NCBI GenBank assembly: GCA_000004695.1
Contig: CM000152.2
Location: 2,176,001-2,240,000 of the forward strand
Length of the DNA: 64,000 nt
Source of the DNA: Dictyostelium discoideum
Taxonomy: Eukaryota
Direction: 5' to 3'
In this document: positions 61,802 to 61,817 of the stretch, piece by piece
Position numbering within the stretch: position 1 is the stretch's first letter
Layout of the letters: each line of letters begins with the position of its first letter
Program-made: the position numbers and the translations under genes
The notes under the pieces: generated by a model
Databases searched by the model: none
Told to the model about the DNA's origin: nothing
The model's input: the letters and a program-made list of their open reading frames with translations, nothing else

Positions 61802-61817
61802 CCATAAACTGAAAATC
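61802..61817 (-). CDS. SDR 16-nt microexon GATTTTCAGTTTATGG (encodes GFSVYG with the catalytic Tyr)
   Basis: Acceptor ...TTTTCCAG at 61818-9; GTAATT donor at 61800-1. Including it restores the frame and gives the canonical SDR active site ISSIAGGFSVYGSTKFA (S...YxxxK). Confidence 0.55.

Follow-up and report, generated by a model that had tools for sequence, protein, structure and literature searches.

We analyzed a 64,000-nt stretch of Dictyostelium discoideum DNA (contig CM000152.2, positions 2,176,001 to 2,240,000; hereafter the window), and all positions given below are counted from its first base. The gene of interest, DDB_G0279545, encodes a member of the short-chain dehydrogenase/reductase (SDR) family (Table 1). 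Among the features around it is an ORF of 818 aa on the plus strand (56590-59046), which matched Pfam Peptidase_S8 (subtilase) with 112.7 bits; it contains long runs of Asn, its C-terminal region is Cys-rich, and a hydrophobic segment lies close to the C-terminus. Two adjoining Cys-rich ORFs on the same strand (59559-60280) are, judging from their sequence, probably exons of one secreted protein; the N-terminus of the first resembles a signal peptide. Between this Cys-rich gene and the SDR gene lie two short minus-strand ORFs (60357-60771). Neither the ORFs at 59559-60280 nor those at 60357-60771 gave a Pfam match, and scanning the window for tRNAs yielded nothing.

Table 1. Features of the SDR gene under the favored gene model, with the two parts of its middle exon listed separately (window positions).
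Feature	Position	Strand	Description
SDR gene DDB_G0279545, Dictyostelium discoideum	61325-62381	minus	three exons, two introns
Exon 1 (favored 3' end)	61934..62381	minus	448 nt; ATG 62381-62379; residues 1-149 plus first base of Gly150; phase 1
Intron 1	61839..61933	minus	95 nt; GTAGTT...ATAAAG; 6.3% G+C
Exon 2 (small internal)	61802..61838	minus	37 nt; GATTTTGTAATTATTTTCCAGGATTTTCAGTTTATGG; (G150)-F-C-N-Y-F-P-G-F-S-V-Y161-(G162)
Disputed segment, 5' part of exon 2	61818..61838	minus	21 nt; GA TTT TGT AAT TAT TTT CCA G; coding; 23.8% G+C
Originally predicted 16-nt "microexon", 3' part of exon 2	61802..61817	minus	GATTTTCAGTTTATGG
Intron 2	61716..61801	minus	86 nt; GTAATT...TTTTAG; 9.3% G+C
Exon 3	61325..61715	minus	391 nt including TAA stop (61327-61325); opens with last base of Gly162

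The original prediction had placed the product of this gene among the SDRs, and we found it to be a classical SDR. The protein matched Pfam adh_short (PF00106) and carries a cofactor motif of the TGxxxGxG type (TGASKGLG, residues 13-20), the NNAG motif (residues 90-93) and the Asn-Ser-Tyr-Lys catalytic residues. We aligned the product of the gene model with a 37-nt middle exon to 13 dictyostelid orthologues and paralogues and five intron-less Bacteroidota genes. Across these 19 sequences Asn115, Ser147 and Lys165 were invariant and Tyr161 was nearly so; residues 161-165 form the YGSTK motif. The codons of the catalytic Ser, Tyr and Lys (61943-61941, 61806-61804 and 61708-61706, respectively) are spread over three separate exons.

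The middle one of these exons is the feature in dispute. Exon 1 ends in phase 1 with ...AAC ATT TCA TCT ATT GCA G, followed by gtagtt (N-I-S-S-I-A plus one base), and exon 3 starts at 61715, behind a T-run and TAG, with T TCT ACA AAA TTT GCT, that is, (G)STKFA. Joining exon 1 straight to exon 3 shifted the frame, as had been predicted, and led to an early stop. It had been further proposed that the frame is restored by a 16-nt microexon and by nothing else. These 16 bases are indeed present on the minus strand at 61817-61802, read GATTTTCAGTTTATGG, and are bounded by TTTTCCAG and GTAATT (ttattttccag upstream, gtaattg downstream); their inclusion restores the frame and forms Y-G-S-T-K. However, when we enumerated all AG...GT pairs in the 218 nt that separate exon 1 from exon 3 and kept the open-frame solutions, three middle exons rather than one were obtained: 37 nt (61838-61802, with its acceptor after ...aaataaAG), 16 nt, and 7 nt (61808-61802), all of which share the donor 61802/GTAATT. 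The 37-nt exon gives the junction peptide ISSIA-G-FCNYFPGFSVY-G-STKFAIDGL, and the 16-nt exon gives ISSIA-G-FSVY-G-STKFAIDGL, with one Gly; the peptide GGFSVYGSTK reported for the latter had counted the phase-1 G of exon 1 twice, and the junction reads IAGFSVYGSTK. Because the 37-nt and 16-nt exons differ by 21 nt, both acceptors are in frame, and the frame alone cannot choose between them. In general, where the distance between two acceptors is divisible by three, the frame is not decisive, and conservation of loop length together with orthologue DNA is needed.

The loop in question runs from the catalytic Ser to the catalytic Tyr, and in SDRs it measures about 13-14 residues. The middle exons of 37, 16 and 7 nt give Ser-to-Tyr spacings of 14, 7 and 4, respectively. 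Among 124 retrieved homologues the spacing was 14 in 119, with 13 and 15 in one each (121 of the 124 being measurable). As far as the sequences can tell, the 37-nt choice is the only one that yields a loop normal for the family, and the active site of the 16-nt model, which had been called textbook, departs from this pattern. The 37-nt model aligned without gaps in the loop to its 18 relatives (ISSIAGFxGxFPGFxIYxxTKFA). Under the 16-nt model, seven residues (FCNYFPG) are lost whose counterpart in dictyostelid paralogues and bacterial relatives is the conserved loop FxGxFPG. The 7-nt exon, TTTATGG read after TTTTCAG/, has in its favor that it is the third frame-keeping AG...GT combination; it would give ISSIAVYGSTK, with GATTTTCAG left out between exon 1 and TTTATGG, at the cost of ten conserved loop residues and with no supporting homologue or annotation, and we regard its probability as negligible.

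Comparisons with profiles and structures pointed in the same direction, and the 16-nt model scored below the 37-nt model against every one of them. Both products lie well above the curated adh_short cutoff of 26.6 bits, at 155.5 bits (37 nt) and 146.0 bits (16 nt). Against PDB 3m1a, the best solved-structure match, the corresponding scores were 109.1 and 101.6 bits. In the HMMER alignment to 3m1a the 16-nt model needed a 6-residue gap precisely in the Ser-to-Tyr loop, whereas the 37-nt model differed by a single residue in loop length.

Public protein collections contain the product of the 37-nt model. Among 5.8 billion protein clusters searched, we found NCBI KAM9949387.1 (ACTFIT_010596), which is 100% identical over the full 291 aa. 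The 90% cluster of this protein holds three further 291-aa proteins from D. discoideum and D. cf. discoideum strains as well as the AX4 protein, all with FCNYFPG. The AX4 reference protein (DDB_G0279545, Q54WM6, XP_641691.1; 292 aa), annotated as "short-chain dehydrogenase/reductase family protein", likewise includes the 37-nt exon. In contrast, no exact copy of the 284 aa encoded under the 16-nt model occurred in a collection of 15 billion proteins. The suggestion that the exon had been missed by gene callers is therefore at odds with its presence in the AX4 reference model and in five 2025-era NCBI Dictyostelium annotations. These public protein models are predictions, most of them probably homology-guided, and they are therefore not fully independent of the homology argument made above. 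Exact searches of public metagenome and metatranscriptome contigs with the spliced exon 1-exon 2 and exon 2-exon 3 junctions gave no match.

We compared the orthologous loci of three sister species, D. cf. discoideum (L001), D. citrinum (L002) and D. dimigraforme (L003), with the window. The 37-nt block AG/GATTTTGTAATTATTTYCCAGGWTTTTCWRTTTATRG/GTAATT was present in all three. Within it, the disputed 21 nt were identical to the window at 21, 21 and 20 of 21 positions (62/63 overall), and the sole change, TTT to TTC, is synonymous. The 38 nt just upstream of the 37-nt exon were identical at 16-21 positions, which is approximately the level of unrelated AT-rich DNA. The 16 nt of the original prediction matched at 13-15 of 16 positions and were less conserved than the disputed 21 nt. 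Intron 1 measures 95 nt in the window and 112, 247 and 91 nt in the other species, its contents are unrelated among the four, and the flanking introns do not align. The 247-nt intron 1 of D. citrinum (L002 1949-2195) is a nearly pure (ATT)n microsatellite. A brute-force splice solver needed the 37-nt exon to reproduce the annotated proteins of the three orthologues. Comparison with dictyostelid orthologues, which had been proposed as a check, showed that the small exon is kept, but as 37 nt and not as 16 nt. Furthermore, the G+C content of the disputed segment (23.8%) is exon-like (29-31% in the exons) and not intron-like (6.3% and 9.3% in introns 1 and 2), and because of this, among other evidence, we regard the segment as coding. 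Of the 17 introns mapped in the gene family, each has TAG or AAG at its 3' end and none has CAG.

On this evidence we consider it very probable that DDB_G0279545 contains a constitutive exon of 37 nt. The locus would then be a three-exon minus-strand gene for a classical SDR, in which exon 2 would encode the loop from the catalytic Ser147 in exon 1 to the start of helix alphaF, Tyr161 included, with Lys165 following in exon 3. The comparative data suggest that the upstream AG, the acceptor of 61838, is the one used by the spliceosome in vivo. What stood of the original prediction was a separate small exon with the catalytic Tyr, the donor 61802/GTAATT and the limits given for the two large exons; the small exon's size of 16 nt and its 5' end did not, the exon beginning at 61838. 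A 16-nt microexon (61817-61802) entered through TTTTCCAG/ and encoding a 284-aa SDR with ISSIAGFSVYGSTK keeps the frame, forms YxxxK, has a T/C-rich run ahead of its CAG and passes the adh_short threshold at 146 bits. We nevertheless judge it highly improbable: its Ser-to-Tyr spacing of 7 compares with 13-15 in the measurable homologues, its 21 "intronic" nt are conserved in coding style in three species, the conserved loop is removed, and its protein is absent from public collections and scores lower throughout.

The 16-nt reading would arise from taking the in-frame AG of CCA/GGA, a conserved Pro-Gly pair, as an acceptor. The bases TTTTCCAG/G, which had been read as a polypyrimidine tract and acceptor, are coding sequence: they correspond to the in-frame TTT CCA G(GA) for Phe155-Pro156-Gly157 of the conserved loop FPGFS(V/I)Y, and the internal CCAG at 61821-61818 consists of the codon for Pro156 and the opening base of Gly157. 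Three paralogues, two of D. firmibasis and one of D. purpureum, have TTC CCA GGA, with the same CCAG/G and without a nearby intron. The occurrence of CCAGGA in intron-free paralogues indicates that the internal AG of the 37-nt exon is a by-product of the Pro-Gly codons. In an AT-rich genome this constitutes a trap, as Pro-Gly codons (CCA GGN) behind Phe (TTT) mimic a polypyrimidine tract followed by an acceptor. The 37-nt exon also contains an internal GTAATT, the same hexamer as its own donor, and the heptamer GGATTTT occurs twice, at 61839-61833 across the intron 1/exon 2 boundary and at 61818-61812 inside the exon. The resulting appearance of a GT...AG intron inside the exon was rejected, since the interval is too short and is explained by repeated Gly-Phe codons.

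A further possibility is that both acceptors are used, with 61838 as the major site and the internal CAG at 61818 as a minor one, which would give a small fraction of in-frame transcripts lacking 21 nt and a product that is probably inactive or altered. Either choice is in frame, the internal site has a pyrimidine-rich context and is itself conserved in all four species, and TTATTTTCCAG/G resembles a good acceptor by metazoan standards. However, the Pro-Gly codons account fully for this conservation, given the same CCAGGA in intron-free paralogues, and we saw no sign of regulation in the sequence data. In addition, splicing normally takes the first AG that follows the branch point, and alternative splicing is rare in Dictyostelium; both count against a second acceptor, and we consider its use improbable. 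Equally doubtful, on the same sequences, is that CAG/G at 61818 could serve as a regulated alternative 3' splice site giving a condition-dependent form without seven loop residues. If it did, the truncated substrate loop would leave an SDR variant that is inactive, regulatory or altered in specificity. Under the preferred 37-nt model, the product of DDB_G0279545 is most likely an ordinary active SDR with both introns constitutively spliced, as far as its sequence indicates.

The AX4 protein differs from the 291-aa proteins at the 3' end of exon 1, where the minus strand carries a tandem donor, GCAG/GTA/GTTATT (61928-61937, with GTs at 61933 and 61930). From the sequence comparisons we favor an end of exon 1 at 61934 (291 aa) over one at 61931 (292 aa). 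Use of the downstream donor (GGTA/GTTATT) would add Arg151 ahead of the same 37-nt exon. This donor has a canonical GT and is in frame, and the 37-nt exon combined with a donor 3 nt downstream reproduces the curated 292-aa AX4 protein exactly. Nonetheless, against each of the 18 relatives in the alignment the extra Arg stands as an insertion, there is no GT at that position in the three orthologues (GGTAAT, GGTAAT and GGTATG), 16 of the 17 family donors mapped begin with GTA and one with GTT, and four newer annotations of the D. discoideum group take 61934. We therefore view use of the AX4 donor as unlikely. A small practical outcome of this work is that the additional Arg of the AX4 reference model is probably spurious, its exon 1 donor having been set 3 nt too far downstream.

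The exon 1 donor recalls known tandem splice sites (NAGNAG acceptors, GTNGT donors) in its GTAGT arrangement, as do the acceptors of the 37-nt and 16-nt exons, which lie 21 nt apart and in frame. It differs from them in that the second donor is absent from the orthologues and that use of a second site is here a potential of the sequence alone.

The 19-sequence alignment was used to build a confident AlphaFold2 model (pLDDT 90.2, pTM 0.90), which displayed alternating strands and helices, as a Rossmann fold would. In this model strand beta5 spans residues 141-145, a loop follows at 146-158, and the long helix alphaF starts at 159. According to the predicted fold, the 37-nt exon encodes most of the beta5-alphaF loop together with the first turn of alphaF, which bears the catalytic Tyr161.

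A microexon is usually defined as an exon of at most 27-30 nt, and some authors allow up to 51 nt. At 37 nt, exon 2 of DDB_G0279545 exceeds the common limit and falls only within the looser one. It resembles microexons in being very short and internal, in having canonical GT-AG introns and in encoding a functionally critical residue; it differs from them in its length and in having been found by standard annotation pipelines. The exon is already known, stands in the reference annotation, and is an ordinary feature that is short for Dictyostelium. A literature search on the gene identifier and on Dictyostelium microexons returned nothing relevant, the sole Dictyostelium match naming "microexon" as a TopHat option. 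The value of these results is mainly corrective, in that the claim of a 16-nt, switchable microexon missed by annotation pipelines was not upheld.

The closest solved relatives of the protein include 3m1a, a putative dehydrogenase of Streptomyces (full-length alignment, E = 2e-30), and ElxO (4qec). Its nearest group is that of the PRK06180-like "oxidoreductases" (NCBIfam NF004824, 219.6 bits), with which it shares TGxxxGxG, NNAG, Asn-Ser-Tyr-Lys and a C-terminal helical extension; its score lies under the curated cutoff of 298 bits, which makes it a relative and not a named member. Unlike these bacterial SDRs, DDB_G0279545 is a eukaryotic gene with two introns. Among the top 120 matches, all named non-dictyostelid ones were from Bacteroidota (Chitinophaga, Pedobacter, Mucilaginibacter, Dyadobacter and others), with 43-50% identity. 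Dictyostelium paralogues were 51-59% identical, so that the Bacteroidota proteins are nearly as close, and no other eukaryote was among the 120 matches listed. These sequence relationships make the family a candidate for horizontal transfer, and it may have entered Dictyostelium from Bacteroidota, a phylum that occurs in soil. After such a transfer, the DDB_G0279545 lineage may have acquired a pair of introns around the catalytic Tyr, with only 37 nt between them.

The paralogues were of no use as confirmation of the acceptor, as the small exon is not shared and their introns are located elsewhere. The stretch NISS...Y..TKFA is uninterrupted in the coding DNA of P0005, P0006, P0007, P0011 and P0013; the first four have introns in other places and P0013 has none. 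The introns that flank the 37-nt exon were absent from all paralogues examined, from D. firmibasis (L004, L006) and D. purpureum (L005, L007). These paralogues share a different common intron after ..LRxNK, with one intronless gene among them. Since the flanking introns are absent from the paralogues, the intron pair 37 nt apart is specific to the DDB_G0279545 lineage; it was either gained there or lost elsewhere. One further paralogue, ACTA71_000364 of D. dimigraforme, carries Phe at the position of the catalytic Tyr (..TCIFSATKFA..) and FSG for FPG (alignment columns about 160-170), and from these substitutions it may be an SDR copy without catalytic activity that adjoins an intact tandem paralogue.
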